Positions 25,852 through 62,795 of a stretch of 64,000 nt of DNA are shown piece after piece; the first letter of the stretch is position 1, and each line of letters begins with the position of its first letter. The position numbers and the translations under genes were made by a program. Below the pieces are notes generated by a model that did no database searches, had not been told where the DNA came from, and worked only from the letters and a program-made list of their open reading frames with translations. This DNA is from a virus, in UHGV virus genome UHGV-1352914; one strand, 5' to 3'.

Positions 25852-25857
25852 ACCATT

Positions 25858-34026: not shown

Positions 34027-34083
34027 TCCCACGGAACCCACGGAACCCACGGCCAAATGGCCACAATGGGTTCCGTGGGTTCC
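34027..34083. repeat. Intergenic palindromic array: (CCCACGGAAC)x2.5 ... 17-nt spacer ... GGGTTCCGTGGGTTCCC
   Basis: Seen in sequence; ~50 nt upstream of promoter at 34137. Confidence 0.65.
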
Positions 34084-38319: not shown

Positions 38320-39083
38320 TGACAAGCAAAAACAAAATTAAGGAAATACAGAAGTGGGCGGGAACTACGCCCGACGGTATCCTTGGTGATAAGACCATTG
38401 ATGCTATATGGAAGAAGATACAACCGGAACCCACGGTTTCCGTGGGACCTATGGACGTCCCGGAAACCACGGGTTCCGTGGGTCCCGTGGAATCCCCGGC
38501 AGAGATTATCCGCAAAGGAATGGCCAAGAAGATTCTCAACATGGAGGACTACAAGATTACAGGTCCCGATTCTCTGCGCGTAACTCGCCTCCCCTCTGGT
38601 GACGGCGGTGGCAAGTGGGAGATTGCAGGTATCTGTGATGGGATTGAACCCAAGGAATTCAATCTAATCAAATCCATGATGGACCGGGGCGACAGGGATG
38701 CGGCATGGGAGGAATGCCTCCGCTATGTTCTCGCCAATACGGAACCGTTGGTTGCCAAGGGAGTTGCAGGATGCTACGCCATTGAGTTCATGCTTCGCGA
38801 CATGACCTTCAACATGGGTGTGGCGGGAACGACTAAGGTTGTCCAGCGCATGCTCGACATTGATATTGACGGCAAGTGGGGGAAAAATACCCAAGCCAAA
38901 TGGACGGACGCCATTCAATCATGGGAGGAAAGCGAAGTCCTCGATATGCTGGACCGCGCTTGTCGTGCCCGCTATTGCTCCATTGTAAGAGCCAATCCGG
39001 TGAAGGCGAAGTTTCTCTCCGGCTGGTCCAACCGATGCAATGCGCGACATGCTTACGCTCTTACTCTGTTGTCAAGGAAATAA
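38319..39083 (+). CDS. Endolysin-like protein with peptidoglycan-binding repeats
   Basis: 'WAGTTPDGILGDKTIDAIWK' and 'IDGKWGKNTQAKW' PG_binding-like repeats; linker 38420-38500 carries CCACGG palindromes. Confidence 0.5.
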   Translation: MTSKNKIKEIQKWAGTTPDGILGDKTIDAIWKKIQPEPTVSVGPMDVPETTGSVGPVESPAEIIRKGMAKKILNMEDYKITGPDSLRVTRLPSGDGGGKWEIAGICDGIEPKEFNLIKSMMDRGDRDAAWEECLRYVLANTEPLVAKGVAGCYAIEFMLRDMTFNMGVAGTTKVVQRMLDIDIDGKWGKNTQAKWTDAIQSWEESEVLDMLDRACRARYCSIVRANPVKAKFLSGWSNRCNARHAYALTLLSRK

Positions 39084-39096: not shown

Positions 39097-39125
39097 TTGA
39101 CCCGTTAAACCCCAAATGATAACAT
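39097..39125 (+). promoter_or_regulatory. sigma70-like promoter TTGACC-N17-TAACAT followed by 14-bp palindrome that includes the ATG
   Basis: Seen in sequence; palindrome aacatggcggcaagg/ccctgccgccatgtt 39121-39155. Confidence 0.5.
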
Positions 39126-39150
39126 GGCGGCAAGGTAATTCCCTGCCGCC

Positions 39151-39573
39151 ATGTTTAGATTCGTCGCACAGCTAAACACCATTGACGGTAACGTATGGAC
39201 TTTGTTTCTCACCCGTATCGTCGAGGAAATGTCTCCCGCATATCTCGTATTTGTGGGAGTTATTTACGTGGCAGTAAAGCTGGCGTATAAGTATCTCTCA
39301 AAAAAGATAGAGTTTAGTCTTGACAAGGAGAAGTCATTTCTCATACTATTGCAAGAGGCTCTAAGAGTTATATCCGAGTTGGATGAATCTCTAGACCAAT
39401 TACATGGAAAAATAGACAACCTACGAAGCGACCATGAAGAGATAATCGACCGCGCCTTCTGCGCTATCTCGCAACAAGATACACACCCCTCCGACAGAAA
39501 TGAAAATATTCAATCTGTTCCGAAAAAGCCACGAGCAGGAACAACTCGAAAACGAGTTGACCCAGAATCTTAA
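39151..39573 (+). CDS. TM + coiled-coil protein (holin/spanin-like)
   Basis: TM segment 'AYLVFVGVIYVAVKLAYKYL' then helical charged region; downstream of endolysin. Confidence 0.4.
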   Translation: MFRFVAQLNTIDGNVWTLFLTRIVEEMSPAYLVFVGVIYVAVKLAYKYLSKKIEFSLDKEKSFLILLQEALRVISELDESLDQLHGKIDNLRSDHEEIIDRAFCAISQQDTHPSDRNENIQSVPKKPRAGTTRKRVDPES

Positions 39574-40012
39574 TCAATTACAGGAAAGCATCCGTGCGTG
39601 TACTGAAAAAATCCGCTCAAGGAATCGGTTCTATGCCTCCCTTCCTCTTGGTCGCGAGGGTGAGCTGAAACTGCCCAGAAACCAATGGGCCTATTTTTTA
39701 CGGGGGAAAGTAGGAATTCGTTATGACGGAGAAACCCTTACCTCTTCGGTCACACAGGTTAAAACTCGTGAAGAAGTTCAACTGCCAAGAATTATTGATG
39801 CGGAGAGAAGCCATAAATTACTTGTCATACAAGGATATGTTATTGACAGGCGAACGAACCGAACATATTATCGGGGCGAGACAGTAAGTTTTCCGCGGGG
39901 AGAACCAATGCAATTAACGTTGAACGGGCATATTAGCATGATGTGGACACCCCCGCTCCCCGGTGCAATTATGCCGTTCTTTCAATCCAATATACATGGC
40001 TCTGATTCCTAA
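39500..40012 (+). CDS. Hypothetical protein (74-nt overlap with previous ORF)
   Basis: 170-aa ORF; overlap unusual, start uncertain. Confidence 0.35.
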   Translation: MKIFNLFRKSHEQEQLENELTQNLNQLQESIRACTEKIRSRNRFYASLPLGREGELKLPRNQWAYFLRGKVGIRYDGETLTSSVTQVKTREEVQLPRIIDAERSHKLLVIQGYVIDRRTNRTYYRGETVSFPRGEPMQLTLNGHISMMWTPPLPGAIMPFFQSNIHGSDS

Positions 40013-42887
40013 TACCACGGCCTCCACTCCACAGCCTCCGACAATACCCATTGGAACCACGGATTCCTCGTGGCGCAATGGGTTCAGTCCTGACAGGCCA
40101 ATGGGTGAGCCGATAATTAACTTTCCCACTCCGGTGGTAAAAAACGTGATGTTCTTCGTTGAGAGGATTGCCAAGAATCCCAGCGAGATTACCACTGAAT
40201 TGGGAACACCGTTCGTACCTACTGCGGGTACGACCTTCCTCCCGTTCATGCGGGATGCAGTTCTCGTGCATGTCGAACCCGTCAATGAGGCGGCGAGACA
40301 GCACGTTTATCGTTTCTACTACATGGTCCCGCCGGAACAGCAGTTCCGATATAACATTCAGGACATGAAGAAAATCCGTGACGGCTATACCTTAAAGGAC
40401 ACCGTCGCTACGGGTAAGTTCATGGGGCCGGATGCAGACACGGAAGAGTTGAAGGACTTCTACGAGATTACACGGGAATGGGTGGAACCCTTGGATTCCG
40501 CGTATGCCCCGCTTCCCCTTGGCTCGTTTGACCCCAGCAACGAAAAGCTGGACCCTGACTTCTATGACCAGCACTTCTACACGGCCTACGATGCCCAGCT
40601 GGTATTTGAAGAAGTAGTCCAGTTTGAAGAAGAACACCTACGCAAGTATTTTCGTAAGGTGGTACGCGTGTACAAGACCCTGCCCGGCCCGGTGGTTAAA
40701 GAGTTCGTCCCTTATAACATTTGGCAGAAGGGAGATACGGTGTGGGATGAAGGTGGTCCGGGAACGAACCAGCCCGAATCTGAATGGGTGGCACAGACTG
40801 CAATTAAGTTATCGAGAGAGGTCTGGGCCGCGCCGCTTTGGCCCGTCGATGGTGGAGGGAAGGAACCGGGTCAGGCCCGCATTCCTCACATGCCCCTCCT
40901 TGAACTGGACAATAAGCCCGTTAGTGCTGGCTGGGACAAGGGCAGTTATCCGAGTACGCAGATGTACACCCTTGTATCTATGTACAAACGGAACAGTAAC
41001 ATTGCGGAGAAAGAGGAACAGAACAGCCTCTCCGGTAATTGTTGTAACCCGGATTCCCGTTTTGTCCGGTGCATCAATACAACCGTGACGACTAGCCAGT
41101 CCGTCGACTGGACAGCGAACGGCGATGTCCCTGCGATTGACCCTCCTGACCCCGGCGAGAACTGTAGCCAATGGCGTGTAGATTCCTCTGTGGTAGTACA
41201 TGAAGGATATAGCCACAAGGAAACGCGAAAGAGTTGCACCACCTACGACCAGATTGATGAATTCTGGGAATCCTCATTCGATAGGATAACCAATCAGGTC
41301 TATCCTGTACTGCGGAAGATTGTACATAATCCGAGCACTGACTTCGACACCGATTGGCAGAAGGAAGGATTCACCAAATACACGGACGCAGTTGGCAATA
41401 CCTACTATGGCCGGAAGTTGGAGAAGCCTGTTACGCTGGTTCCCGTCACCGTCCCTGACATGAGGTGGACCACTATTGAAAATGTGGAATCTTGGGACCT
41501 GACGGTTCAAGAAGATTCCGTAACTCCTACCGAGATACTGGGCATTCCCTATTTGAACTACGGAATAAGTGACCCTAACTACCCAGAGTACCAAGGTTTT
41601 ATGGGCGTTAGCGGGATTCTTAGTGCTCAACCCAACGGTTCTAACTCTGACAGGGGAGGAAACTTCGGCATCTATTTCCGTGATAAACGATTGTGGAACC
41701 TGTATATTCAGAACAGCTATCCTACAACTTATTCGCCGGGGACCTTCTGGCTTGACTACGCATACTTCTCCGTCAATCCGCAAGGCCCGTGGTACACCGA
41801 AGACGGACAGGTTAAGATAGATATGGAGATGGTTATTCAGTCCACCCTGTATGCCAAAATTGTTACGAACGAAACTTGGACCTTCCCCGTAGGAAACGCC
41901 CAAGGGATTAGCTTCGTTCAACGAGATGCTTCGTATACTTCTGAAATGATGTTCTCCGTAGGGTCGCTTCCTTCCGGGATACAGGGGGCATATCTGGACA
42001 TCCAATATGGGCGGCTTAACCTAGTAGTCATAGCTAATCCCAGAGGGTCTGCAATCAATGGCACTATTCCCATTCTGATTAACGGTGAGAAGGCGTTCGA
42101 CATTGACGTAGAAACCGTGGACCTAGATACGCAAAAGGTTCTTACGGTTCAGAACACCACTGCCGCTAAGCAGGAATACCATGCTGGGGATTATGTTCTC
42201 AATGCGGAGGTAGTCAATAAACTGACGCTATCCTACAGTGGGCAAAAGTTTCCCTATTTCCAATTTAATCTTACCCTGTGCGCACTTACGGGGTCTACCT
42301 TTAAGAAGGTCGCGACAAGTGATAAGATTCAACGCGTCGTCCTGCGCCAATGGGTGAACCCCTGTTACGCCGTAGATAGTTACATGCAGATTCCGGGAAT
42401 CGGGTACTACAAAAAATATACCACGACGATGAACTACAGTTTCCCTGCCGTGTTCGGTTCGGTTAGTTGGGTTCCGTGGGATACGAGGCCCGACCTCTCT
42501 GGCAGACAGGAAGGCAAGTACTTCCCGCAGACCAAGATGATGCGGGACAGTTACTCCGGCCCCTGCACCGCCGTGGTAGAGGAAGCCTTCTCCCCCGATG
42601 GCACATGGCCTAAAGGCTGGGGCCTTGGGACGTCGGTACAGTTCACGACGAACAGCGGGTATTTCTCTTCGCCGCTTTGCGATTACCGTCTGCCCGCATG
42701 CCTCCACGGCCCGCTGACTATATCCGTAACCATTGGCAGTCAGGACGCCAAGTGGCTTCCCGGCGGGTTTAATACAAACTTTCCGGGAACTACCCACACA
42801 GATTGGAAACCCGTGACCTCCTATTACGCATCCCCGTGGAACGGAGGCATGATGTGCAAGAAAGTAACCATTTATCCACCCAGTTAA
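39963..42887 (+). CDS. Large tail protein (nozzle/spike/fibre class, putative)
   Basis: 974 aa, W/Y/G/N-rich beta composition. Confidence 0.5.
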   Translation: MQLCRSFNPIYMALIPNTTASTPQPPTIPIGTTDSSWRNGFSPDRPMGEPIINFPTPVVKNVMFFVERIAKNPSEITTELGTPFVPTAGTTFLPFMRDAVLVHVEPVNEAARQHVYRFYYMVPPEQQFRYNIQDMKKIRDGYTLKDTVATGKFMGPDADTEELKDFYEITREWVEPLDSAYAPLPLGSFDPSNEKLDPDFYDQHFYTAYDAQLVFEEVVQFEEEHLRKYFRKVVRVYKTLPGPVVKEFVPYNIWQKGDTVWDEGGPGTNQPESEWVAQTAIKLSREVWAAPLWPVDGGGKEPGQARIPHMPLLELDNKPVSAGWDKGSYPSTQMYTLVSMYKRNSNIAEKEEQNSLSGNCCNPDSRFVRCINTTVTTSQSVDWTANGDVPAIDPPDPGENCSQWRVDSSVVVHEGYSHKETRKSCTTYDQIDEFWESSFDRITNQVYPVLRKIVHNPSTDFDTDWQKEGFTKYTDAVGNTYYGRKLEKPVTLVPVTVPDMRWTTIENVESWDLTVQEDSVTPTEILGIPYLNYGISDPNYPEYQGFMGVSGILSAQPNGSNSDRGGNFGIYFRDKRLWNLYIQNSYPTTYSPGTFWLDYAYFSVNPQGPWYTEDGQVKIDMEMVIQSTLYAKIVTNETWTFPVGNAQGISFVQRDASYTSEMMFSVGSLPSGIQGAYLDIQYGRLNLVVIANPRGSAINGTIPILINGEKAFDIDVETVDLDTQKVLTVQNTTAAKQEYHAGDYVLNAEVVNKLTLSYSGQKFPYFQFNLTLCALTGSTFKKVATSDKIQRVVLRQWVNPCYAVDSYMQIPGIGYYKKYTTTMNYSFPAVFGSVSWVPWDTRPDLSGRQEGKYFPQTKMMRDSYSGPCTAVVEEAFSPDGTWPKGWGLGTSVQFTTNSGYFSSPLCDYRLPACLHGPLTISVTIGSQDAKWLPGGFNTNFPGTTHTDWKPVTSYYASPWNGGMMCKKVTIYPPS

Positions 42888-42891
42888 TCTC

Positions 42892-43635
42892 ATGGCATTC
42901 ATTACCAAATCCTATTTAACCTATCGCAATGTTTGTGACGAGCTTTGCATGCTCATTACAAACCAGCCGCCGTCCAAGTCCAACGTTGACTTCCGTCGCA
43001 TATTGAAGGAAGCGCAGAACCTCCTGCTGAATGAGGCCACGGTATCCCCGGATTCCGTGGAAACCTTGGACTTTGAAGGAATCCCTCACGGGGGTTCTAT
43101 CTCCCTGCCCGAAGAATATGACAGTATCGTTGAGGCATGGTCGCCCAGCGGCAAGAAATACCACATCATTGACCGGGCCATGTTCGAAAGCAACACGTGG
43201 TTCCGTTCCGAATACCCGAAGCATGACAGTGGCTATCACGCCATCATGCTGGACATGGGACTGAACGAGCAGAACCTCCGCACCTATTCCGTCCTGTCTG
43301 GCAGTAGCGGCATCAACGACAACCCCGCGAGCAACGTCATGACGGTTTCGGCACGGTGCGCATTGCGCGGCCTATCCCTCAACATTTATGATGACGCGGC
43401 ATGGGAAGACAAGGAGGTTCGTATCTACCCCGGATGTCTTCCCGCATTGAAGGCAATGATGCTGGCCGTGGTCTATAATGAGCAGGGCAACACTCAAATG
43501 GGGACGGACAGCTATGGTCTTGCCGTCAAATACCTGAACGACCACCTGCGCAAATATCGTCAGGGTACGTATCAGGCTCCGAATATTATTCAGAACGGCG
43601 GCATCATGCAGTGCCCCGGACTTAACCTCATGTAA
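42892..43635 (+). CDS. Putative virion protein
   Basis: 247 aa. Confidence 0.45.
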   Translation: MAFITKSYLTYRNVCDELCMLITNQPPSKSNVDFRRILKEAQNLLLNEATVSPDSVETLDFEGIPHGGSISLPEEYDSIVEAWSPSGKKYHIIDRAMFESNTWFRSEYPKHDSGYHAIMLDMGLNEQNLRTYSVLSGSSGINDNPASNVMTVSARCALRGLSLNIYDDAAWEDKEVRIYPGCLPALKAMMLAVVYNEQGNTQMGTDSYGLAVKYLNDHLRKYRQGTYQAPNIIQNGGIMQCPGLNLM

Positions 43636-43637
43636 TT

Positions 43638-44765
43638 ATGCCGACCAAAAAGACTGACATATCGAGTGAGACGAGCGCGAGCGGGGGTATCCCCGCCGCC
43701 AAGTCTCTCAAACAGAAGACGATGGACGAGGTGCTTCCGAAGTCGAATCCCAACATCCCTCTCCGTCCCATGAATAACAACGACCCGAACAAGCCTGTCG
43801 ACGCGAAGGAGATGAACACCATCGCCGCGGCCAATAGCAACCACGGGATTAAGAATCCTCCCGCCAGTCCCTACGGGCGGGGGATTACGGAACCAGCAGT
43901 GCCGGGCGCAGTTGACCCTAATAGCGCAAGCTACGCCGCGCGGCAACAAGCGGCATACCAAGCTGGCATGCAACAAGCCGCGGCGGGGAAACTCTCTGCC
44001 GAGGATAGGCTCATGCTTCGGGGAGTTGACCAGAATGTGAGCAGGGGAATGATGCCCACCATTTCTCCTGCGGCATCCACGGTTCCCATGGCAACCGGAC
44101 GTCCCACGGCATCCACGGGAACGACGGCATCCACGGGAACGACGGCATCCACGGGAACGACGGAAGCGGCTCAAAAATATCTGCAAGATAAACTTGGTCC
44201 GGAAGGGTACAAGGTATTCCAGTCTATGCCGAAGGAACAGCAGGAAGCCATATATAGCAAGTACGCCGAGATGGTGACCAAGAATGCGCCAGCCGCTACC
44301 ACGGCGGCATTACCGAAAGGTTCTGCTCCGTCTCCCTCCGCAAACGCACTGCCCTCTGGCAATACTCCCATTCCCACGAGAAGTTCAACCACAAGTGCGC
44401 CCGCCGTGGATACTTCCAACAGTTCCGGTGGCGGGACTGCCGAGTACATGCTTCGAACCCTACAAGATAACACGGCCAGCCCGGAAGCTAGAGCACAGGC
44501 AGGAACATACCTCAAGGTCCGAACCATGTACGCCCAGCCGGAAAAGTATAGCAAGGAAATTAAACTCCTTGAAAAGCTGGAACGGGCTAAAAAAGAGGAA
44601 CTGCGCAACATGTTCAGGAATCGGCTCAACATCCGAGACCCCCGCTTTGCGCGGCAGTACGCGCAGTATCAAGCCCTACAGAAGAAAGACCCGCAAGCAA
44701 GGCTCGCGCTATATTCCGAACTGATGCAAGGTCCGGAGTTCGCCCATTTGGAATTCCGAAAATAA
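43638..44765 (+). CDS. Low-complexity A/Q/P-rich protein with (ASTGTT)3 repeat
   Basis: 375 aa; likely internal/ejection or assembly protein. Confidence 0.45.
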   Translation: MPTKKTDISSETSASGGIPAAKSLKQKTMDEVLPKSNPNIPLRPMNNNDPNKPVDAKEMNTIAAANSNHGIKNPPASPYGRGITEPAVPGAVDPNSASYAARQQAAYQAGMQQAAAGKLSAEDRLMLRGVDQNVSRGMMPTISPAASTVPMATGRPTASTGTTASTGTTASTGTTEAAQKYLQDKLGPEGYKVFQSMPKEQQEAIYSKYAEMVTKNAPAATTAALPKGSAPSPSANALPSGNTPIPTRSSTTSAPAVDTSNSSGGGTAEYMLRTLQDNTASPEARAQAGTYLKVRTMYAQPEKYSKEIKLLEKLERAKKEELRNMFRNRLNIRDPRFARQYAQYQALQKKDPQARLALYSELMQGPEFAHLEFRK

Positions 44766-44788
44766 ATTTGTCATAGTTGATATTTCAC

Positions 44789-44816
44789 TTGACCCTCGCC
44801 CCACTCATGATAGGAT
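44789..44816 (+). promoter_or_regulatory. sigma70-like promoter TTGACC-N16-TAGGAT nested in inverted repeat CCCCACTCATG...CATGAGTGGGG (44798-44842)
   Basis: Seen in sequence. Confidence 0.45.
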
Positions 44817-44868
44817 GTTGAAGACCCACATGAGTGGGGCAAACTTATTAGACTAACACTCAACAAAC

Positions 44869-47800
44869 ATGGCTATCGACTTTAGTACCGCCAATATGTC
44901 CGACTTCGCTCCGACGTCGGCAAGCAGTATCGCGCGTGAACAGCGAGCCGCAGAACGGCACGCCACGTGGCAAGAGACGCAAAAACAGAAACAGGAAGAC
45001 AGAGCACAGAAAGCACTGGACCGCGAGCAAAGGTTAGCGGAAAAGAAACAGACCCGCGCGGAGAAAGCCGCAGGAGCTACCGCGGAGTTTGATGACTATG
45101 TCTTTAAGTCCATTGATGACTTTCAGAAGAAACAGACTGAACAGGCAGACCGCGCACGTAACGTAGAATGGGAAACAAAAAGCCGCGCCCATACGGAACA
45201 AGGATGGAAAACCACCGCGGAAAAGGCTGACATTGATGTCTTGAACAAAGGAAACCGTGGGTTCACCTTTGAGGGAATCGACTACATGAAGGACTATGTA
45301 GACCGCGGAGAAGATGCGCTGGTTGATTTGAAGGCCGCCGCTCGTGGTGATAGTGACGCCATTAAAAAGCTTACGAATAACACGGGCATCGTCGCAGTCT
45401 CTTCCTCCGAACTTTCTCCCCAGCATCCCGCATTCTTATCCCGCTTTGGCTTCGGCATGGGAGAGGACGGGAACCCCGTCGTAACGGAAAAGTTCCTCGC
45501 CATTGCCGCAGACAGAAACCGTAACGCAAAGGCGGTGGCCAAATCCATCGCCAACACAATGGAGAAGGCCCGGAAGGATTACCTCAACTCGCATCTAGAT
45601 GTTGGTACAGGTAAACCTAAAGCAGAAGCCATCGAGACTGCACCCATTGCTTACACTGCGGAGGAAATAGAAAGCATCATCAATACGATTAGGCGCGAAG
45701 ACATTGACAACTATCGTGCCGCTAAGTCTCTCTATACTAAGCACCGAGCCGCTTCGACGGAGAACGTGCAGAAGAAAACCCCCAGCCAGACGAACGTGGG
45801 GGAGCTTGGCGTTGGCGAATTCTCTGATTCAGCACCTTCATTTACTGGGAATGTTTTTGCTGAACTCGCCAACCTCTCTAAGTCTCCCAGCAAAATGTTC
45901 CGGCTTGTCCGCGACTACGGGGATTACCTTTCCCGGAACGGTGATATCTATATCCCCGGGCATCAAACTTCAAAGAAAGAAAAACCTGTTGAGGATAGGA
46001 TTCGTGAACAGATAGAGGCGGCAGACAAAATCGTAAGACGGCTCGAAGAAGACTACACTGGCCTTCCCTACCTCGAACTTCGCGACGCGATTCTCAATCC
46101 GGAAGCCGCGGCCTCTACCCTTCTGTCTTTAGTCCCCAATGCTGACATGGACGCAATACGTGCAAGGGCCGAAGTTCTTGCCAAGGACCTTCGTCGCAAG
46201 AAGGACCGCCCCCTGACCTTCGAGACCGATGAACAGATTGGCATGAGTGAGGCTATACTGGAAGCCGTGGCTACAAGGTTTCCGGGGGTTCCCAAATCCA
46301 CCCTGTACCAAGCGGGAGTAACCAATCTGATTCAGGGTTATGTCGCCAAGGCTACGCCGAGAGGCACTCTCATGGATGCGGTCAATGGTGCAATGGCTAA
46401 CTACCGAAGCACGGCGGGACAAATTGCGGATGTGCTTACCTTCCAACCGGGAGATAGTGTGGGCAAGACCTCTGACCCATTGAGTACGATGGAATGGAGA
46501 AAGGGAACGAGGCGTGGCACATGGGAGTATGGCGTACCGGGGGGTCCCTCTTTTGATGTAGGTCCCGAACGGTTGAAGGAATACATGGCCCAGTACCATA
46601 TCGAAAGTACCCGCGACGCTCTCAACTCCCTCTCCCATGCCGCACGTATGGGTGACTTGGGCGTAGGCCGTGGCAGTCTCTTTGCGTACAATCCGCACAC
46701 CAAGGAAGTAGATACGAATGCCACTCTCGAACTGAACCCCAATGCTCTCTACGACAATAAGCTGATGGACAAGAGCATTGAGGCTCTCCGTGCTAGTGGC
46801 GCGGACGAAGGTCTCATCAATCGCACCATTGAGAAGTTCCAGAACCTCCGCACGAAATCCGCACAGGAACTTGTGAAGGACAACATTGCATTGGATGAAA
46901 CGCTGGGAACGCTCCGTGATACGTGGCTTGGTTCCGGTATGCGGTTCAACCCTGTCTGGACCGAAACCATGAAGCATCTGGACAAGTACCTTTCCTTCAA
47001 GAATTTTTACAACGAACAGAAGGAAGCGGGCAAGAGCGACGAGGACATTCTCTCCGCATGGCAGGAGAAAGGACAGGCTCACATCAATCCTATTCTCCGT
47101 GGGTTCCAGATAGGCACGCACAAGGCCATTGACCTTGGGACAGGGGCCGCCTATGGTGCTCTTCTCTTTGCGCAGAATGCAGTCGGCAGTCGTGCGGCGA
47201 TGGAACATACCCGCACCCTCTGGGACCAGCTGAACAAAAAACAGGAAGCGGAAGCTGAACTTGTTCGAGGCAATATCATTGCAGACTATACTGCGGAAAT
47301 CGCTAACCTCGGCTACCAAATGGTAGCAACCGCGGGGGCTGGTAAAATCGGTGGCCTTGCTGGCCGTGCATTGGAACGTACCGCTCTGACCAAGTTCGCG
47401 AGGGCAATGGCTAACGTCGCGGCGAGGCGGGCAGAAGCTCTTGTCCCTGCCGCCCGTCCGGGATTGGCGGGACGTTTGAGTGGAACTATTCAGCGCAACC
47501 TCAACAACCTTGCGGCGTTGAGCCTCGAACGGGCAGGAGCTGGTGCTGGGGTAAACCTTACCATCATCTCGCAGGTTGCACCGAATGCTTACTCCGACAT
47601 CTTCTATACCATTTATGACAGGGAGATGGAAGGGAAGGAAGCGACTGCCGAGAACACGAACCGGGCACAGAGCATTGCCAGCAGGCATGCCCTCTTTGGT
47701 GCGGCTCTGGTCTCCACTGGCAGTACGCTTATCAACAACCGCGCAGGTATGGATTCCTTCATGCGTAAGGTTGTTGGGGCTAAAAACCTTCGCGGCCAAT

Positions 47801-50800
47801 CTCCAGTCCAAACTCTTGAACAGAAGATGGCCAGATGGAGAAGCAAGCCGTGGGCTGAAATGAATACCAAGGAGAAGACGTTTGCCGTTGCTTCCTATTT
47901 GTACAGCACGAGCATGGCCGCAGTGGAAGGAGCCACCGAAGAACTGGCAGACGAATTCCAAGAGTGGGCATTTACTGAACTGGTGAAGAACGGAGAAATC
48001 TCCGAATCCTCTATTGCCACTACTGACCAAGTGATTAGCGGTGCTATAAAGACTGCTTTCCTTGGGGGTATCGGCGGCTACGTTGGTAGCCAGTTAGCTG
48101 GTGAAGGGAACATACGTTTCCAAACCGAAGCCGCTCCCACCCTTGATGTAAAGGATGCTACTTCCATACTACCGGATATTACGAAAGATGCGAGCAACAT
48201 CATCGAGGAAACGGGCAAAGCCATTACCAAGGATAATGTACCGGAAAGCTTGGTAGAAACCGGAAAGAGGGTTATCGAGATTGCCGGGGAGAAGGGGGAT
48301 GCCGCGGAAGTTGCCCGCGAATGGGTGGACAAATCCATTGCCCATGAAAGTCTGGCAGTCTCCGATGAAACCCGCAAGGCATGGGTGGAAGGCGCAACCC
48401 GTATGGGCATCAGCAATTTCACCCAGTTCCGCAACCTAGTTGAACGGGCCTCCGAAATATATACCTACGAGGGTAGTGCCGCGGCAAGCTCATTCATGGC
48501 AGAAGCCATTAACGACCTGCCCAATACCCTGTCATTCCCAAATAAGGAAAACCTCGACACCATGCGCACCATGCTTTCGGAGGCCCTTGATGCTATGGGA
48601 GACAGGGTTCAGGTTATCGAAGTAGACGACGACCTGTCCATCATTACTACAGGGGACGAGGACCTCGATGCCGCTCTTCACGTCATTAACGGATTGACGG
48701 AACCCACGGCTACCACGGAACCCAAGGAATCCCCGACTACCGCGGAACCCACGGCTACCGCGGAACCCACGGCTACCGCGGAACTCACGGCGCGGAAGGA
48801 GAGGGACCAAGCCATTGCCCCCGTCACTAACATGGTAGATACGGGAGTAGTTACCCCCGAAGCCGTGGAAACCGTGGATACCTTGGATGCCGCCATTACT
48901 TCGTTCGACCCCAACACTGGGGCATGGCTTTCATCCGGTTCACCTCTTGACCGCGGAACCAAGCTCGTCTCCTTGAACGAGATGACCGGGATTAACGCCC
49001 CGCTGGTTACGAGCAACACGGGAGAAACCATTGTCGTCTCTCCGCACGCAAGCATGTACAACATGGGTGAGGGAGGGACACCCAGCACCAAGTGGGGGGA
49101 TAGGGTCTCCGCTCTCAATCTCCCCTCTGACGGGACGGGCGTAAATGCCTACGGCATCCTTTCGGACCTTCGCGTCAAGGCATCTCCTGCACAGGCCGCG
49201 GCCATTGACGGAGTGCTCCGCGCATTGCATGCCGCTGGTTTGGACGTGGCTATCCGAGCCACCAATGCTCCTGCCAATATAGCCTCCCCCGCCAGTATCA
49301 CGTATAAGAACGGAACAGACGGGAAGCTCGTCGGCGGCGTCATTGACCTGTACATGGACCGGGACAATGTGATTGAGAGCGTAACGGGAACAGTACTGCA
49401 TGAGGCCATCCACCTCATTGACCGTCATCTTCGTGCCACTAACGCGGACTACTCCCAGCGGATGGACAAGATTAGAAGCGCAGTTGCGGAGAACTATAAT
49501 CAAATCATTGATAGCCTCACTGCTATGTATGAAGCTAGCGTGGACATCAATGAGATGAATGCCATCGCCGCGCTTGCCTCCGACCTCAACTATGGTCTCC
49601 GTGGCCCGGACGAATTTGCCAGTGTTGCGTTCTCCAATCCTGTCATGAACTTCATGATTGCGGAGGTGAGCGGAGACAATGTAACCCTCACGGATTTGGC
49701 TCGCTATGCCGAAGCGGCTGGGGGCAGGAGACCCGTTCATGTGCGCCTCATTGAATGGCTTAAGGATTTGATTAGGGATGTGCGGCAAACTGCGGACGAC
49801 ATGGATGGAACCACCGCCGCCAAGAATGCGGCTGAATGGGATTCCTATGTGGACCGCGTCGCGGACATAACCCCCGGCAAGTGGTTCGACATGCCTCGCA
49901 CTCCGTCATGGAAAGTAGACGATACGGACTACACCATGAGCCGTGAGGTAGATTATTTTAACCCGTTGGCCTATGAGACCGACATGACCCAAAGACTGTC
50001 CTTCGGTCTGGGCGCAGAGATTATCGGTACGAATGCCGGGAACTGGGTAACCAGTGTTAAGAACGTATGGCAAGGCGTGTCTAAGGGCTGGGACAAAGCT
50101 GGCATCAATGTTAAGTCCGAGGAACAGAAGCTGATTGTGCTGGAACAAATGACCAACGTGAATGCGGCGTATGAACGCAGTATTAAACGCATTGGCAAAA
50201 TCGGCGATATGCTTCAACGCCGTGCGGATAGTCTGGGCTGGGATGCCACGACGCGAAAGAAATGGAGCAAATCCATTCTCGATATGTCGGGGAATATGGA
50301 CAACGATATTGACCCTGAAACTGTTGCACGCATTAACGCAGAGGCCCAAGCAGAAGTTCGCCAGCACGAACAGACCCGCGACTTCCGTATCGCGTTGGCT
50401 AAGAAGACCGTTACCGATGCCGTCAATAGGCACGCGGAAGCGGTGCGTCTGGCCAACTCCCTTGCGCTTAATAGTGAAGGGCGATTGGAAATCAATGAGA
50501 TGATGCGCCGGATTAAAGACATGAGCGTCAAGGGATATGGTGCTATGCTGGACAAGACGGTGGCTCTCCCCATGCTCTCCCAGCAGATTCACAATGTGCT
50601 CTCTGACCTTGGCTCTCGTATCTCCGCGACGGGGGATGCCAATCTGGAAACCACCTACTTTGGCCTCGCCCGTGATACGCAGAACTACCTTGCGGATATG
50701 ATTAACGAGGTGGACAGTCCCTTCTCTATGGATGAACTTCTGGACAGGTGGTCCAACCTTCGCAACGACTACCTCTATGCGGAGAGTACAAACCACCCCG

Positions 50801-53800
50801 CCATCGCTCCTATGATTCAGGACATCTCTAGGGCACGGGCCGAAGCTAAACAAATCATCCGGGAAGCCAACGATGATTTCCATGCCGCAACAAAGAGGGC
50901 AGGTGTAACTCGTGCTGGCGTAACTACCCCTGCTGGTTCCGTGTGGCTGAAACGGGACAACGCTATCCTCGATGCACGCCGTCAGAAACAGGCAGAGTAT
51001 ATGGCTAAGCGGGATGCCGCGGAACAATGGCTTCTGTCACAGGGAGTTGTAGGCCAGCTGGTCCACAATGTCATCGCCGATTCCCGTAAAGAAATTGCCG
51101 CAACGCAAATCTCTATTGCCAAGCTCATTGGAGATAGCCGTATGGCTAACAACGCCGCGGAGATGAATTATCTTCATCGCACCTACATGGCCGTAGGTCG
51201 TCATGCCGGAGACTTCACCCGGACGATGAAGGACATCATTGCACACCCCAACGGAGAACTGGCGCAGAAATACGATGGCCTGACGAAGTTGTTGCAGGAA
51301 GCCGCAATCGCTCATGCCGAAGCGCACCAGACAGAGTTGTCCGAAAACATAAGCCAAGTGCTGGACAACATGCAGGCATTGGCCGCGCTCCATGACGAGT
51401 TGAAACTTCCGCTGGTGTCAGCTCCCACGGGAGCCTCTTCGAATTATAAACTCCTGTTCGAAGGTGTAGCCAAGAACTACAGGACCAGAGAAATTCTTGA
51501 CTTCATTCAGAACAACTTCGGCAGGGTTCAAATGCTTGCGGACCTGCGGGATGGCCACAACATCAGTGCCATGTATAATAAGGCCATGAGCATGATAGCA
51601 CAGGCTGACTATCGCACGAAGTCAAAGATGGCAGAGATGAAAGAAACTCTGGACATGAAAGCCAGAGATAGTTTCCTCGCCGATGTCTTCTCCAGCCTTC
51701 CGGGAAACACGATTGCCGACAAAATCGGCGGCCTTGAATCCCCGGCATCCGTGGCTTCCGAAGTGAACAAGGCCATCCCCACTATCCCGACTTCGGCCAT
51801 TGACCAGATATGGAACGCTCCGAATATGAATGCCGCAGAACGACTGGACAAGACGCTCAATCTTCTCCGTGGTCAGGCGGGCATTCTCATGGGGGCGAAC
51901 AATATGGGCAACGTCATCTCCGCTACCGACTTGAAAGTGTTGCAATATCCGGAACTCTCCCGTCTTGCGGTGAACGATGCCATGAAGGCCATTGACGAAG
52001 TGCTGACCAAGAAGAGGACGAATGAAGATGCGCTGGCCCAGCGGAAACGCTTGCCCGAATGGCAGAGGAAAGCTATGTATGAACTTAGTGACCTCACCAT
52101 TGGGGATGCCATTGGGACATTGCAGAATACCATATCCATGCAGTCGAAGATTGCCGTGAACCAGTTGCTTGCTGACGAGTACGCCACCGTGCTCAAGGCA
52201 CAGGGTGTAGTCGTACCCCCGGATTCCGCGAGCCGTACCCCTGATATGGTGGAAATCTCCTTGAAGAATACGAAGAATGCGTTGAACGGATTGTATGCCG
52301 ACAAGGATGTAGCCGATGCACTCTATCACATCTACAGGCCAAGCGACGACATCATGAACAGTCGGACGGACGACTATAAGAAGGTGCGCAAGTACTGGCA
52401 GAAGTCCGGCAAGGGTCAAGAATGGTGGAGTAAGGCGGGTGGCTTGGCTAACCTTTCTGTCTTAATAGCTAGTCCTAATTCCACGTTACGTAACTTATAT
52501 GGTACAGTAGCTCAAATGACCCATGCGGGTGCACTTCCATTCACGGGGAGTAAAGACATCGCAAACCTTGTCGGGGACTGGGTCCAGTTGCGTAAGTTGT
52601 GGTGGCTATCACAGGGCAAGGACCTTGGTTCACAGGCTTCCGCAGATAGACTGCTGGCCGCGGAAGACAGGTACAACGAGAAGATTCGCTACTGGCAAGA
52701 GCTTGGTCTGCTGGACGCAGGTCAAGGGGAGTTCCTGCGCAACGTCTGGAAGTCTGACGAGTTCAGTAAGATGGCAGGAGAATTTGAAGAAGTGAATGAA
52801 GATTCCTTCTTCAAACTCGCCGAAGCTCTGAACGAGAAACAGGAACGGACGAAGGGCGAGGTGGCTAAGGATGCCGCCAAGATGGCGGGCAAAGTCGTAG
52901 CATGGCCCGTCAAAACGATGGCCTTCGCCTATGGCTTGCCGGACGCGGCGGCCAAGATTGTTCTCTTCACTAACCAGAGAGCGATTGCCGATACCCAATT
53001 AAAGGTACAACTGGCACGGGCGAAAGGCAAGGCCAACCCCAATGCGCGGGACCAGATACTCCTTGACGCGAGCCAGACTGACCAGAGTTGGAATGCGTAT
53101 GTGGATAGGTATACTGCCCACATGGTGAAGAGCTTGCTCCCCACGGGTTCGCGTACTCCTTCGTGGGTGAAAACCCTGAATATAGTTGCGGCTCCGTTCT
53201 TCATGTTCCAGTACCATACCGCCCAGTCCGTAGTCTACAACCTTGGCCACGCCATAGGCGAAGGGGTAGACGGTGTGTGGGCTATCAATAACGGCATGAA
53301 GAAGGAGGGGGCTTACCTCTTGGGACGCGCTTTCGTTCGCATCGCTGGTTCCGTAGGAACTATTTCTGCAACCTCTGCGGTCTCTTCCTGGGTTGCCCGA
53401 CAGATTATCACCAGTGTCTTGGGAGATGACGATGACCGTAAAATCATTGACGACGCGGAAGTCATGAGGAAGCTGGCAGACAGTGGGCTAATTCCCGACT
53501 ATGATAAGTTCGGGGACTTGATTGGCATCATAGATATGAAGCGGCATGAGTTCGAGTATTTGAACCTTGAATACATGAACCCGTTCAAGACCATCAAGGT
53601 GTTAGCCAAAACCCTGCCCAGCCTCTTCATGGATATGGATGTGGACAAGTGGGGGATGAACAAGGTCGCCGAACTGAAAAACCTGCTGGAAAATACGGTG
53701 CTCGAAGAATCCCTCCTTCTGAACGCCGCTTCTGAATTGTTTAATGAGGAAGACTTCAATTACAAGCATAGCCTCTCAGGTGATGAAAGTGTCAACGTTC

Positions 53801-54534
53801 TCCCGGCAGTAGGCAACGCAATCCTGTTGGCCGCAGGACTGAACCCCTCGTTCGGCAGTGGACATACATGGCAAGTCCTTGAACGATTCGCGACGGTTGC
53901 CAATAAAAAGATTCCCTTCTACGGCTGGGCAGTCAAGTCAGGTAAACAAGCGTTTAGCGATACACCTGACATGAGTGGCGCGGCATACGGGTTACAGTCC
54001 TTGGGTGCGGGCCTCCGTCGTCCGAAGGATTTGACCGAAGCCCTTGCCGCCGGGTTAAAGAATGCCAACGCGGCGGTCACTAAGTCGAAGCGAATGAGCA
54101 TTCTGCGTCCGGACTTCTACAAGAGAATGGAATCCGGGATGGATGTGGAACTCATGGAAGCCGTGGAAACCGCGGATGCCGTGAAGAATTTCACCAAGCT
54201 AGTCAATAGTGTCCGGTTCGTTACGGAAATTACAAACATGCTTGACCCGTCCATCCGTTCGGAAGTTCTGGCCTCCGTGATTGAGAGTTCCGGTATGAGT
54301 GCCAAGACCTACGGCGCGGCCATGCAGGGCATCATGCCCTACGTCATTAGCCCGCAAGCAGGACGTGAAGCTATCGCGAAGCTCAACCGTGAATTGCAGA
54401 AGTCTAATACCACGGACGAGGGCAAACGCCTAATCGAAGAGCAGAAGCAACTCATTATCAACCTCATGCGGAAGGGTAGCATTCCGATTGATGGGGCATT
54501 GAGTACAGAGGAAATTCATAATCGGATGAAGTAG
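44869..54534 (+). CDS. Giant virion/ejection ('polyvalent'-type) protein, 3221 aa, with zincin-like HExxH motif
   Basis: Single uninterrupted ORF; mostly helical/low-complexity; 'GTVLHEAIHLIDRH' HExxH; linker repeats 'EPTATAEPTATAE'; no DxDGD RNAP motif seen. Confidence 0.75.
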   Translation: MAIDFSTANMSDFAPTSASSIAREQRAAERHATWQETQKQKQEDRAQKALDREQRLAEKKQTRAEKAAGATAEFDDYVFKSIDDFQKKQTEQADRARNVEWETKSRAHTEQGWKTTAEKADIDVLNKGNRGFTFEGIDYMKDYVDRGEDALVDLKAAARGDSDAIKKLTNNTGIVAVSSSELSPQHPAFLSRFGFGMGEDGNPVVTEKFLAIAADRNRNAKAVAKSIANTMEKARKDYLNSHLDVGTGKPKAEAIETAPIAYTAEEIESIINTIRREDIDNYRAAKSLYTKHRAASTENVQKKTPSQTNVGELGVGEFSDSAPSFTGNVFAELANLSKSPSKMFRLVRDYGDYLSRNGDIYIPGHQTSKKEKPVEDRIREQIEAADKIVRRLEEDYTGLPYLELRDAILNPEAAASTLLSLVPNADMDAIRARAEVLAKDLRRKKDRPLTFETDEQIGMSEAILEAVATRFPGVPKSTLYQAGVTNLIQGYVAKATPRGTLMDAVNGAMANYRSTAGQIADVLTFQPGDSVGKTSDPLSTMEWRKGTRRGTWEYGVPGGPSFDVGPERLKEYMAQYHIESTRDALNSLSHAARMGDLGVGRGSLFAYNPHTKEVDTNATLELNPNALYDNKLMDKSIEALRASGADEGLINRTIEKFQNLRTKSAQELVKDNIALDETLGTLRDTWLGSGMRFNPVWTETMKHLDKYLSFKNFYNEQKEAGKSDEDILSAWQEKGQAHINPILRGFQIGTHKAIDLGTGAAYGALLFAQNAVGSRAAMEHTRTLWDQLNKKQEAEAELVRGNIIADYTAEIANLGYQMVATAGAGKIGGLAGRALERTALTKFARAMANVAARRAEALVPAARPGLAGRLSGTIQRNLNNLAALSLERAGAGAGVNLTIISQVAPNAYSDIFYTIYDREMEGKEATAENTNRAQSIASRHALFGAALVSTGSTLINNRAGMDSFMRKVVGAKNLRGQSPVQTLEQKMARWRSKPWAEMNTKEKTFAVASYLYSTSMAAVEGATEELADEFQEWAFTELVKNGEISESSIATTDQVISGAIKTAFLGGIGGYVGSQLAGEGNIRFQTEAAPTLDVKDATSILPDITKDASNIIEETGKAITKDNVPESLVETGKRVIEIAGEKGDAAEVAREWVDKSIAHESLAVSDETRKAWVEGATRMGISNFTQFRNLVERASEIYTYEGSAAASSFMAEAINDLPNTLSFPNKENLDTMRTMLSEALDAMGDRVQVIEVDDDLSIITTGDEDLDAALHVINGLTEPTATTEPKESPTTAEPTATAEPTATAELTARKERDQAIAPVTNMVDTGVVTPEAVETVDTLDAAITSFDPNTGAWLSSGSPLDRGTKLVSLNEMTGINAPLVTSNTGETIVVSPHASMYNMGEGGTPSTKWGDRVSALNLPSDGTGVNAYGILSDLRVKASPAQAAAIDGVLRALHAAGLDVAIRATNAPANIASPASITYKNGTDGKLVGGVIDLYMDRDNVIESVTGTVLHEAIHLIDRHLRATNADYSQRMDKIRSAVAENYNQIIDSLTAMYEASVDINEMNAIAALASDLNYGLRGPDEFASVAFSNPVMNFMIAEVSGDNVTLTDLARYAEAAGGRRPVHVRLIEWLKDLIRDVRQTADDMDGTTAAKNAAEWDSYVDRVADITPGKWFDMPRTPSWKVDDTDYTMSREVDYFNPLAYETDMTQRLSFGLGAEIIGTNAGNWVTSVKNVWQGVSKGWDKAGINVKSEEQKLIVLEQMTNVNAAYERSIKRIGKIGDMLQRRADSLGWDATTRKKWSKSILDMSGNMDNDIDPETVARINAEAQAEVRQHEQTRDFRIALAKKTVTDAVNRHAEAVRLANSLALNSEGRLEINEMMRRIKDMSVKGYGAMLDKTVALPMLSQQIHNVLSDLGSRISATGDANLETTYFGLARDTQNYLADMINEVDSPFSMDELLDRWSNLRNDYLYAESTNHPAIAPMIQDISRARAEAKQIIREANDDFHAATKRAGVTRAGVTTPAGSVWLKRDNAILDARRQKQAEYMAKRDAAEQWLLSQGVVGQLVHNVIADSRKEIAATQISIAKLIGDSRMANNAAEMNYLHRTYMAVGRHAGDFTRTMKDIIAHPNGELAQKYDGLTKLLQEAAIAHAEAHQTELSENISQVLDNMQALAALHDELKLPLVSAPTGASSNYKLLFEGVAKNYRTREILDFIQNNFGRVQMLADLRDGHNISAMYNKAMSMIAQADYRTKSKMAEMKETLDMKARDSFLADVFSSLPGNTIADKIGGLESPASVASEVNKAIPTIPTSAIDQIWNAPNMNAAERLDKTLNLLRGQAGILMGANNMGNVISATDLKVLQYPELSRLAVNDAMKAIDEVLTKKRTNEDALAQRKRLPEWQRKAMYELSDLTIGDAIGTLQNTISMQSKIAVNQLLADEYATVLKAQGVVVPPDSASRTPDMVEISLKNTKNALNGLYADKDVADALYHIYRPSDDIMNSRTDDYKKVRKYWQKSGKGQEWWSKAGGLANLSVLIASPNSTLRNLYGTVAQMTHAGALPFTGSKDIANLVGDWVQLRKLWWLSQGKDLGSQASADRLLAAEDRYNEKIRYWQELGLLDAGQGEFLRNVWKSDEFSKMAGEFEEVNEDSFFKLAEALNEKQERTKGEVAKDAAKMAGKVVAWPVKTMAFAYGLPDAAAKIVLFTNQRAIADTQLKVQLARAKGKANPNARDQILLDASQTDQSWNAYVDRYTAHMVKSLLPTGSRTPSWVKTLNIVAAPFFMFQYHTAQSVVYNLGHAIGEGVDGVWAINNGMKKEGAYLLGRAFVRIAGSVGTISATSAVSSWVARQIITSVLGDDDDRKIIDDAEVMRKLADSGLIPDYDKFGDLIGIIDMKRHEFEYLNLEYMNPFKTIKVLAKTLPSLFMDMDVDKWGMNKVAELKNLLENTVLEESLLLNAASELFNEEDFNYKHSLSGDESVNVLPAVGNAILLAAGLNPSFGSGHTWQVLERFATVANKKIPFYGWAVKSGKQAFSDTPDMSGAAYGLQSLGAGLRRPKDLTEALAAGLKNANAAVTKSKRMSILRPDFYKRMESGMDVELMEAVETADAVKNFTKLVNSVRFVTEITNMLDPSIRSEVLASVIESSGMSAKTYGAAMQGIMPYVISPQAGREAIAKLNRELQKSNTTDEGKRLIEEQKQLIINLMRKGSIPIDGALSTEEIHNRMK

Positions 54535-54549
54535 CAAGGATTTATATCC

Positions 54550-54578
54550 TTGACCTTCGGGGGCATGGGAGATATACT
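54550..54578 (+). promoter_or_regulatory. sigma70-like promoter TTGACC-N17-TATACT flanked by inverted repeat gggcatgggaga/tctcctatgccc; leaderless geometry (ATG 54585)
   Basis: Seen in sequence. Confidence 0.5.
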
Positions 54579-54584
54579 TCTCCT

Positions 54585-55190
54585 ATGCCCTCTTTTCGTA
54601 TAGTCCCCAATCATGTTATGGTCACCCCTCCGGGTGGCTGGAAGTTTGTTGTCCCTGAATCCATGAGTGTCAGGCTCAAGGGAACCAAGGTTTCCGCGGG
54701 TTCACTGGAACAACTTCGCAAATCCGTTGCCCGTCTCTTCATGAATAATGGAGAACCCTTTCAGGTTGCGCTCTTTGAATCAGAACTCTGTTCCTCTCTT
54801 CCTCCCCAATACTGTACTACCTGCGGGGATAAGGGGATTGAATGGAGGGAGTATGAACCCATGAGTGCCAAGAAGATACTGGCCTTCTTTAGTACTATGG
54901 TTCTCTGGTATCGACGGGGGCACAGATTTGTAGACGAGGCAGAAGCCCGCCGCCGCTATGCTATCTGTTCCTCCTGTCCTTATGCTACCTCTACGCCCCC
55001 CCCGGATTTAGAGAAGCAAGGGTGCGCCACATGTGGAGCCGAAGGAGCTGGCCGCAAATTCCTCAAGGAAAAAATTTCCGGGCAAGCTGACCTGACCAAC
55101 GGGGAGGCTCCTCTCTATTGTACCTTATGCGGTTGCGACCTATCAGTAAAGGCTCACTTCGATATTGAATCTGACTGCTGGCTAAAATAG
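54585..55190 (+). CDS. Cys-rich putative zinc-binding protein
   Basis: 'CTTCGD...CSSC...CATCG...CTLCGC'. Confidence 0.5.
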   Translation: MPSFRIVPNHVMVTPPGGWKFVVPESMSVRLKGTKVSAGSLEQLRKSVARLFMNNGEPFQVALFESELCSSLPPQYCTTCGDKGIEWREYEPMSAKKILAFFSTMVLWYRRGHRFVDEAEARRRYAICSSCPYATSTPPPDLEKQGCATCGAEGAGRKFLKEKISGQADLTNGEAPLYCTLCGCDLSVKAHFDIESDCWLK

Positions 55191-55596: not shown

Positions 55597-55626
55597 TTGA
55601 CAAGGGTACTGGTCTCATGGTATAAA
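55597..55626 (+). promoter_or_regulatory. TTGACA-N18-TATAAA promoter-like element ahead of bidirectional terminator
   Basis: Seen in sequence; could drive ~80-nt non-coding transcript. Confidence 0.3.
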
Positions 55627-55682
55627 GAACCCGCAACGACATCATTCTGTTTGGACTGTAAGTTGTTTGGGTTCTAAGCGAA

Positions 55683-55715
55683 AACCCCGGAAGAGAATTC
55701 CTTCCGGGGTTTTTG
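55683..55715. terminator. Bidirectional intrinsic terminator at strand-switch point
   Basis: aaaaccccggaag-agaatt-cttccggggttttt; U/A tracts on both sides; convergent gene blocks meet here. Confidence 0.7.
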
Positions 55716-55717
55716 TA

Positions 55718-61395: not shown

Positions 61396-61438
61396 ATTCT
61401 TGATAGAAGTGGTTATAACTTTTAGGATTTCGTTTGGG

Positions 61439-62011
61439 TTAAACTCTCAAATTGCATTGGAAGGAACCTTTGTGGAGCGAGAGGATTTCCTCATTGGACA
61501 GGGTCCCCATGTTCAGCCGCATGGCGTCGGGAGCCATCGTCAAAATGGGAGTGCCTTCAATGGACCGGGGGAAGGACATCTTGGTGGCGAGAGCTAGCGA
61601 GGGGCGGGCCTTAAACATAGCGTCGTAAAGTGTTTCGCTATACCTGACGGCAGAATGTCCTCCGAGATAAATTTCGGTAGCATACATGCAATCCTTGCCG
61701 CGCTTCTCTTTAGGGTAGTCGAGCCGGAGGATGCGCACCGAGTGTTCCACGTATGCCTTCAGGTCATAAAGTGTGCGGATGATGAAGTGGGTGTCGGTCA
61801 TAGTTACCTTCCCGATTCCAAAGGCTTCAATCAGGGACTTGGTCCGGGCAGACTGGAGACTATTATCCTCCGGATTCCGTGGAATATAGAGTTCAGCGGG
61901 TGTCTTGGAGGGAAGGATAATAGTATCCCAAAGTTCCCCGGTGCTTCCTCCGTTATTTCTGGTCCAAGAATGAAGGAGCATGAGTTGTTGAGCGAGTGCG
62001 AGGGGTTTCAT
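61439..62011 (-). CDS. Hypothetical protein
   Basis: 190 aa; preceded by conserved upstream element. Confidence 0.45.
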   Translation of the reverse strand: MKPLALAQQLMLLHSWTRNNGGSTGELWDTIILPSKTPAELYIPRNPEDNSLQSARTKSLIEAFGIGKVTMTDTHFIIRTLYDLKAYVEHSVRILRLDYPKEKRGKDCMYATEIYLGGHSAVRYSETLYDAMFKARPSLALATKMSFPRSIEGTPILTMAPDAMRLNMGTLSNEEILSLHKGSFQCNLRV

Positions 62012-62045
62012 AATCGTTTGGTTTTTGTAGGGCTAGGTGTGGATT

Positions 62046-62396: not shown

Positions 62397-62424
62397 AATA
62401 ATTTTGTAGGGCTATGTGAGGTTT

Positions 62425-62763: not shown

Positions 62764-62795
62764 AATAATTTTGTAGGGCTATGTGTGGATTCTAA

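Follow-up and report, generated by a model that had tools for sequence, protein, structure and literature searches.

Palindromes nested in the promoters of a human-gut phage: probable RNA hairpins that may insulate late transcription units

Do the palindromes that overlap several promoters of the virus genome UHGV-1352914 act as DNA, by binding a protein, or do they act in the RNA that is copied from them? The stretch studied here, 64,000 nucleotides (nt) long and referred to as the window, represents most of a phage genome of roughly 70 kilobases (kb), has a G+C content of 51% and carries genes that run on the + strand as far as 55.6 kb and on the - strand beyond. A first-pass annotation had pointed out three palindromes, described them as built around CATG and interpreted them as operators of a dimeric repressor. 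The palindromes are real and lie where they had been placed, except that the third had been started at 54557, which is 4 nt too early, its core arm beginning at 54561. We consider it probable, with considerable room for doubt, that they and a fourth site added here form RNA hairpins of the + strand where the upstream transcription units have their 3' ends, as insulators that resemble intrinsic terminators and are nested within the sigma-70-type promoter that serves the next unit.

The three original sites (S1-S3) and the additional site (S4) are composed of the following elements:

39097-39125, + strand: S1 promoter, with the -35 hexamer TTGACC (39097-39102), a 17-nt spacer and the TG-extended -10 hexamer TAACAT (39120-39125)
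39121-39155, + strand: S1 hairpin, with 15-nt arms (39121-39135 and 39141-39155) complementary at 14 of 15 positions, the 5-nt loop TAATT and then a T-rich tail; the right arm holds the start codon ATG 39151-39153
44789-44816, + strand: S2 promoter, with the -35 hexamer TTGACC (44789-44794), a 16-nt spacer and the TG-extended -10 hexamer TAGGAT (44811-44816)
44798-44840, + strand: S2 hairpin, with perfectly complementary 12-nt arms (44798-44809 and 44829-44840) and a 19-nt loop that contains the -10 hexamer and the predicted start
54550-54578, + strand: S3 promoter, with the -35 hexamer TTGACC (54550-54555), a 17-nt spacer and the -10 hexamer TATACT (54573-54578)
54559-54598, + strand: S3 hairpin, with 12-nt core arms (54561-54572 and 54579-54590) that include one G·U pair, a loop that is exactly the -10 hexamer TATACT, ATG 54585 in the right arm and the U-tract TCTTTTCG (54591-54598)
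25798-25826, + strand: S4 promoter, with the -35 hexamer TTGACG (25798-25803), a 17-nt spacer and the -10 hexamer TAAACT (25821-25826)
25803-25853, + strand: S4 hairpin, with arms at 25803-25816 and 25830-25843, a 13-nt loop that contains the -10 hexamer and the tail AAATTTTTAC

At all four sites, a TTGAC(C/G) -35 hexamer is followed 16-17 nt further downstream by a TAnnnT hexamer, and the first-pass annotation was right that the palindromes straddle the -10/start region of these promoter-like sites. The hairpins begin 0-18 nt past the -35 hexamer; that of S1 starts within the -10 hexamer and extends downstream, whereas those of S2-S4 enclose it. Judged by their sequence, these promoters look real: they have the hexamers expected of sigma-70-type promoters (TTGACA-like and TAnnnT, 16-18 nt apart), and the pattern, which lies ahead of operons, is concentrated on the coding strand, with 21 occurrences on the + strand and 3 on the - strand, compared to 2.7 per strand in shuffled sequences. 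Likewise, the window has five hairpins with 9 or more pairs around a -10 hexamer, against 0.19 in shuffles. The comparisons with relatives drew on IMG/VR and ENA, from which about 100 related loci of gut phages were taken. These loci form two clades, a close one and a divergent one, and in the latter the flanking proteins have 50-77% identity to their counterparts in the window. Among these loci, T1, A2 and T6 of the -10 hexamer are invariant at S1-S4 and the remaining positions and the spacers vary; S2, for instance, has TAGGAT, TAGGGT or TAGACT, and S3 reads TATAAT in most relatives.

The position of these promoters relative to the genes allows their start sites to be predicted. A Shine-Dalgarno sequence is absent from all of the about 68 genes in the window, whose upstream regions are A/C-rich, and five operon-first genes have their ATG 6-8 nt past the -10 hexamer (13253, 16303, 28518, 34172 and 54585). 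This spacing reads as the signature of leaderless mRNAs; leaderless starts without Shine-Dalgarno sequences beside canonical TTGACA/TATAAT promoters are an unusual combination. Because of these five genes, we set the start of transcription at about 7 nt past the -10 hexamer. By this rule, the predicted start falls within the left arm at S1 and, at S2 and S4, in the loop immediately ahead of the right arm. At S3, it would fall midway along the right arm, on the A of ATG 54585; this A is the seventh nucleotide past the -10 hexamer, which implies a leaderless mRNA, and the ATG in the arm is taken as the true start since a second in-frame ATG is not conserved. The S2 promoter would drive an open reading frame (ORF) of 3221 amino acids (aa) at 44869-54534. 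As the predicted starts lie inside the hairpins, RNA born at these promoters would lack the left arm, and the whole hairpin could therefore form only in RNA that arrives from the upstream gene.

It is at the ends of these upstream genes that the palindromes are found. Each of them begins 20-38 nt past a co-directional stop codon and is the sole hairpin of its intergenic region of 50-103 nt; the S3 hairpin, for instance, lies about 25 nt past the stop of the 3221-aa ORF, and S4, which has the same layout as S1-S3, begins 20 nt past the stop of ORF 24812-25783 and precedes ORF 25858. As RNA, the hairpins of the window fold at -24.7 to -27.4 kcal/mol with z-scores of -4.4 to -6.4 (S1, -24.7 and -4.5; S3, -27.3 and -4.6; S4, -27.4 and -6.4), and only 0-2 of 200 shuffles fold equally well; those of the relatives fold at -22 to -33 kcal/mol. 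S3 was classed as terminator-like in a terminator scan (14 pairs, 6-nt loop, TTTTCG tail), and its tail TCTTTTCGT is invariant in relatives. The U-tract of S1 is weak in the window; in the divergent clade, however, the S1 stem is directly followed by a canonical T-run (TTTTT; ATGTTTTTG and ATGTTTTT). The S4 tail AAATTTTT is identical to that of a plain hairpin, a 12-base pair (bp), G+C-rich stem-loop followed by AATTTTT at 23962-23990, which resembles an ordinary terminator and lies after a 418-aa gene that probably encodes the major capsid protein. We set aside ATG 23974, in the loop of this plain hairpin, as probably not the true start of the next gene: gene callers on the relative L058 choose a downstream ATG, which is conserved across relatives.

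The most informative evidence comes from the way in which the hairpins vary. The first-pass annotation had named a lack of conservation in related phages as a finding that would speak against its proposal, and the palindromes are indeed conserved in relatives; what is kept, however, is their pairing and not their sequence. At S1, 94.4% of the cells are paired across 13 haplotypes, 17 of them as G·U; the variation is almost solely of this kind and includes a change of the start codon from ATG to GTG. In the divergent clade, the S1 hexamers have kept their position (TTTACA-17-TA(C/T)CAT) with a completely different spacer. The S2 arms are invariant across the close clade and read GCCCCTGCTTTGA/TCGAAGCAGGGGC, GCCCCCGCTTTG/CAAAGCGGGGGC or .../CAAGGCGGGGGC in the divergent clade; 5 of 13 pairs are altered on both sides, and 94.4% are paired, compared to 34-52% in controls with slid partners. 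S3 has 10 G·U cells and three loop-proximal pairs that changed with compensation (GGGAGA/TCTCCC, GGGGGG/CCTCCC and GGGGA/TCCCC). S4, finally, is almost invariant in the close clade, while L141 and L142 have the unrelated arms GGACCCATTGAC/GTCAATGGGTCC, which still enclose a -10 hexamer, TATAGT, and are again followed by a T-rich tail; the promoter there is TTGACA-18-TATAGT. Even after such total turnover of the arms, the -10 hexamer of S2, S3 and S4 lies inside the loop in both clades.

Several relatives carry a TnpB (IS605 OrfB-like) gene that has inserted exactly at a promoter or start site and has captured the promoter:

L058, 5640-6960: TnpB insertion; the displaced gene now begins with GTG
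L019, about 11150-12540: TnpB insertion
L080, L082 and L083, about 2500-4000: TnpB insertions
L021 and L027, about 20850: TnpB insertions

An apparent S3 variant of L021 and L027 is in fact the upstream end of such an insertion in place of S3 and was excluded from the covariation count. The insertion that replaces S3 in L082 and L083 carries a hairpin of its own, AAGGTGTGGGAGG-TATAAT-CCTCTCACACCTT, right after TTGACA.

These patterns bear directly on the proposal that a dimeric phage repressor binds both arms and thereby blocks the -10/start region. Inverted repeats across this region are what such an operator would look like, and at S2 the close clade shows no variation in the arms. However, a comparison of the S1-S4 arms revealed no shared half-site, five of the six pairwise comparisons being no better than shuffles, and the arms are separated by 5, 19, 6 and 13 nt, respectively. 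The sixth pair, S2 (44802-44811) and S4 (25810-25819), has ACTCATGA in common just ahead of the -10 hexamer, with 8 of 11 identical arm positions, which 9 of 2000 shuffles match; this resemblance is confined to the clade of the window and could stem from gene conversion or coincidence. Nor is CATG a common core: in the four left arms, CAT is separated from the loop end by 10, 1, 6 and 0 nt, CATG is common throughout the genome (406 observed versus 249 expected), and divergent relatives no longer have it at S2 and S4, retaining it only at S1 and S3, where its ATG is the codon with which the downstream gene begins. In relatives, the arms co-vary or are replaced altogether with their pairing retained, and some one-sided changes have become fixed in clades, which break the symmetry of the DNA but preserve a G·U pair. 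With regard to candidate repressors, ORFs 31379-31855 and 15598-16260 gave no hit, while ORF 31852-32205 has a sub-threshold match to the winged-helix domain HTH_34 (17.8 bits, with a cut-off of 27). Altogether, we regard an operator as very improbable.

The G·U pairs also indicate a strand. Over three alignments, the non-Watson-Crick cells, read on the + strand, comprise 29 G·U and 7 A·C (binomial p = 3e-4), and the helices are 95.1% paired on the + strand, compared to 89.7% on the - strand. The A·C cases are confined to one or two haplotypes each, whereas G·U variants are common to up to six. This bias supports, but does not prove, a structure of the + strand, most simply an RNA.

What the analysis shows directly is the hairpins, where they lie with respect to stop codons and promoter hexamers, how they covary and which strand they favour; termination, and the start positions derived from the -10 rule and the leaderless pattern, are inferred as follows. 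A polymerase coming from the upstream gene would transcribe both arms, the hairpin would fold, and the U-rich stretch that comes next at S3, S4 and S1 would cause the transcript to end. In transcripts that escape, the next start region would be held in the stem, at S1 and S3 including the AUG itself. Initiation at the embedded promoter, by contrast, would begin inside the hairpin, at S3 with the A of ATG, and yield an RNA without the left arm, which could not form the hairpin and would be neither terminated nor masked. The earlier suggestion that the palindromes sequester the start codon in RNA thus holds in part: a + strand RNA hairpin is favoured and the start codon lies in its stem at S1 and S3, but the masking would be restricted to RNA arriving from upstream. 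Elsewhere in the genome, a terminator and a promoter stand in tandem without being nested (13170/13220 and 28439/28484), and therefore these parts also exist independently; the nested sites are the same parts, interleaved.

For RNA begun at the S2 promoter, the folding suggests a different structure:

44825-44838, + strand: alternative 5' hairpin CCCAC-AUGA-GUGGG, which could form only in RNA begun at the S2 promoter

For L118 and L130, whose sequence differs here, folding predicts an equivalent 5' hairpin of 5-6 bp. Given the weak energies (z-scores of -0.7 to -2.3), we take this hairpin as a feature suggested by the folding model.

Several points weigh against the terminator-promoter interpretation. 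S2 and S4 are not canonical intrinsic terminators: S2 has a loop of 17-19 nt and no clear U-tract (4-5 U in the 10 nt past the stem), and at S4 three A precede the T-run and the loop has 13 nt in the clade of the window, compared to 5 nt in L141. The cells that make up the strand bias are not phylogenetically independent, and counted by column the ratio is just 12 to 6; furthermore, G·T is the least destabilising mismatch in single-stranded DNA as well, so that the bias favours RNA without proving it. That the promoters use the sigma-70 of the host is an assumption. Finally, were compaction the sole purpose of nesting, the gain of about 30 nt per site would be trivial, and this interpretation by itself does not account for its retention across clades.

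The first of these points is most acute at S2, which may be a weak terminator or, instead, a processing or stability hairpin. More generally, the palindromes might act post-transcriptionally, either as processing sites of the RNase III type or as stabilisers of 3' ends, dividing the long + strand transcripts into units, as between the genes of T7. Covariation and the G·U bias of the + strand suit any RNA hairpin, and S2 in particular has a long stem of 12-13 bp, to which the divergent clade adds an inner stem of 4 bp, as well as the large loop and missing U-tract already mentioned. The canonical U-tracts straight after the stem at S3 and at S1 of the divergent clade, on the other hand, are features of terminators, and, for an RNase III substrate, 10-14 bp is a short stem. 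We consider RNA processing unlikely for the group as a whole, while giving it more weight than any of the other alternatives.

The small saving in DNA and the position of the -10 hexamer raise the question of whether the nesting itself is functional. A polymerase just released from the upstream RNA might re-initiate at the next promoter, or the opening of this promoter might depend on supercoiling or upstream transcription; we hold such a role to be unlikely. Single-molecule work has described sliding and re-initiation of the polymerase after termination (PMC6978380, PMC10372574), and in a host without Shine-Dalgarno use, coupled re-initiation would reset a long transcript to a new leaderless mRNA with a 5'-AUG. 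Control at the level of DNA would mean that negative supercoiling extrudes a cruciform or strand hairpin, which presents the -10 hexamer in a single-stranded loop and ties promoter strength to supercoiling or the passage of an upstream polymerase. Its attraction is that it would account for a -10 hexamer that stays in the loop of S2, S3 and S4 in both clades despite full turnover of the arms, and for a nesting whose gain in space is too small for compaction alone. Yet each G·U pair of the + strand is an A·C mismatch on the other strand, which would weaken a cruciform, and the -10 hexamer of S1 lies in or upstream of the stem and not in a loop. Moreover, loops of 13-19 nt with stems of 10-14 bp extrude poorly. 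On balance, a cruciform appears improbable to us. Our literature search returned nothing directly comparable to nested terminators and promoters or to cruciform promoters.

A further possibility, which we regard as the most remote of those discussed, is that the palindromes are promoters in their own right, namely hairpins of the type used by N4-like phages, recognised by an RNA polymerase that the phage encodes or carries in its virion. Such a hairpin is recognised on the template strand by the phage polymerase, but the G·U bias here is on the non-template strand. The hairpins are centred about 10 nt upstream of the predicted start, and the 3221-aa protein, which has no assigned function, is about the size of the N4 virion polymerase; searches of Pfam, PHROG and PDB, however, gave no sequence match for it. 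In the N4-like phage LUZ7, hairpins are located 13-15 nt upstream of the starts, and the hairpins of N4 and LUZ7 have loops of 3-4 nt and stems of at least 4-6 bp (PMC9163698). The sites described here, by contrast, have loops of 5-19 nt, stems of 10-15 bp and canonical hexamers, and the promoters of the window that lack a hairpin have the same -35/-10 consensus.

The phage in which these sites occur is abundant in the human gut but has not been cultured. Its replication genes include a VapE-like primase/helicase, a family A DNA polymerase, a helicase and an NAD-dependent ligase, and an endolysin is also encoded in the window, while PHROG, Pfam and PDB sequence searches assigned almost no function to the genes that flank the palindromes. 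One of its structural proteins has >3000 homologues in human-gut metagenomes, on contigs of 68-72 kb. Searches of the phage collection, with an 8-kb piece of DNA and with the giant ORF's N-terminus, retrieved no close cultured relative, and the DNA polymerase has only about 26% identity to that of any isolate. In the search for hints at the host, a 710-aa protein gave no relative, and the TnpB of a relative gave at most 41% identity. No tRNAs were found in the window, and no known RNA family of Rfam matched it.

A number of other elements were noted. Strong promoters are followed by terminators within 70-120 nt, with no ORF between them, at 1553-1670, 1687-1795 and 55597-55716; the first two have the hairpin CGGAGGTAGGCT(T/C)GTCCTGCTTCCG in common, and all three are candidate small RNAs that match no Rfam family. 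On the - strand, at 61396-63180, four small genes (starts at 62011, 62396, 62763 and 63149) each have a CACATAGCCCTACAAAA-type motif shortly upstream of their ATG, a candidate promoter that another polymerase, possibly one encoded by the phage, might use. An A+T-rich palindromic stretch with a TATATATA core at 2095-2160, in a 900-nt non-coding region ahead of the replication genes, is a possible replication origin. Lastly, the motif GGAAYCCACGG occurs 83 times (21.8 expected), often with a 9-nt period, in the following places:

34033-34083: GGAAYCCACGG repeats
38425-38478: GGAAYCCACGG repeats
2236-2255: GGAAYCCACGG repeats
30254-30291: GGAAYCCACGG repeats
44072-44154: GGAAYCCACGG repeats
48699-48790: GGAAYCCACGG repeats

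Within ORFs, this motif would encode collagen-like Gly-X-Y repeats; it also makes up a perfect intergenic inverted repeat of 17 nt, immediately upstream of the promoter at 34137.

If the terminator-promoter interpretation is correct, a very common family of uncultured human-gut phages divides its late transcription units by a compact composite signal, in which one element of 40-50 nt ends the upstream RNA and starts the next, and the presence of the left arm distinguishes the two RNA populations. Transcription units and leaderless gene starts in these phages could then be annotated by rule, synthetic biology would gain a small insulated part that combines promoter and terminator, and caution would be due before every promoter-overlapping palindrome is labelled an operator. 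The interest would be greater still if nesting couples termination to re-initiation.

How do these sites compare to known systems? With the operators of lambda cI/Cro, LexA and P22 Arc/Mnt they share an inverted repeat that overlaps the -10/start region, but they have no common half-site, a variable spacing, a conserved pairing and no cognate repressor that we could find. The early and middle hairpin promoters of N4 and LUZ7 likewise place a hairpin about 10-15 nt upstream of the start, but with loops of 3-4 nt and without -35/-10 hexamers (PMC9163698). Like the RNase III sites of T7, the palindromes would be RNA hairpins between genes at which long polycistronic transcripts of the phage are divided, which is possible for S2; their stems are shorter, however, and S1, S3 and S4 have U-rich tails. 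A functional parallel is offered by the insertion sequence IS200. Its left-end hairpin is reported to terminate transcription that enters from outside, and a second stem to mask the ribosome site. Here, too, a hairpin at the entrance of a unit would block incoming transcription and mask the start in read-through RNA, but it is interleaved with promoter hexamers and belongs to an array of phage late genes, not to an insertion sequence. Intrinsic terminators, finally, resemble the palindromes in their G+C-rich stem directly after a stop codon, their tolerance of G·U on the + strand, their compensatory evolution and, at S3, at S1 of the divergent clade and partly at S4, their U-rich tail. They differ in that the usual loop has 3-8 nt, a range into which S1 (5) and S3 (6) fall but not S2 and S4 (13-19 nt), and in the missing U-tract of S2. 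Above all, they lie upstream of the next promoter, whereas the hairpins described here contain its -10 hexamer (S2-S4) or its start site. On this interpretation, the terminator and promoter elements themselves are known; what is new is their arrangement, the nesting of one within the other.

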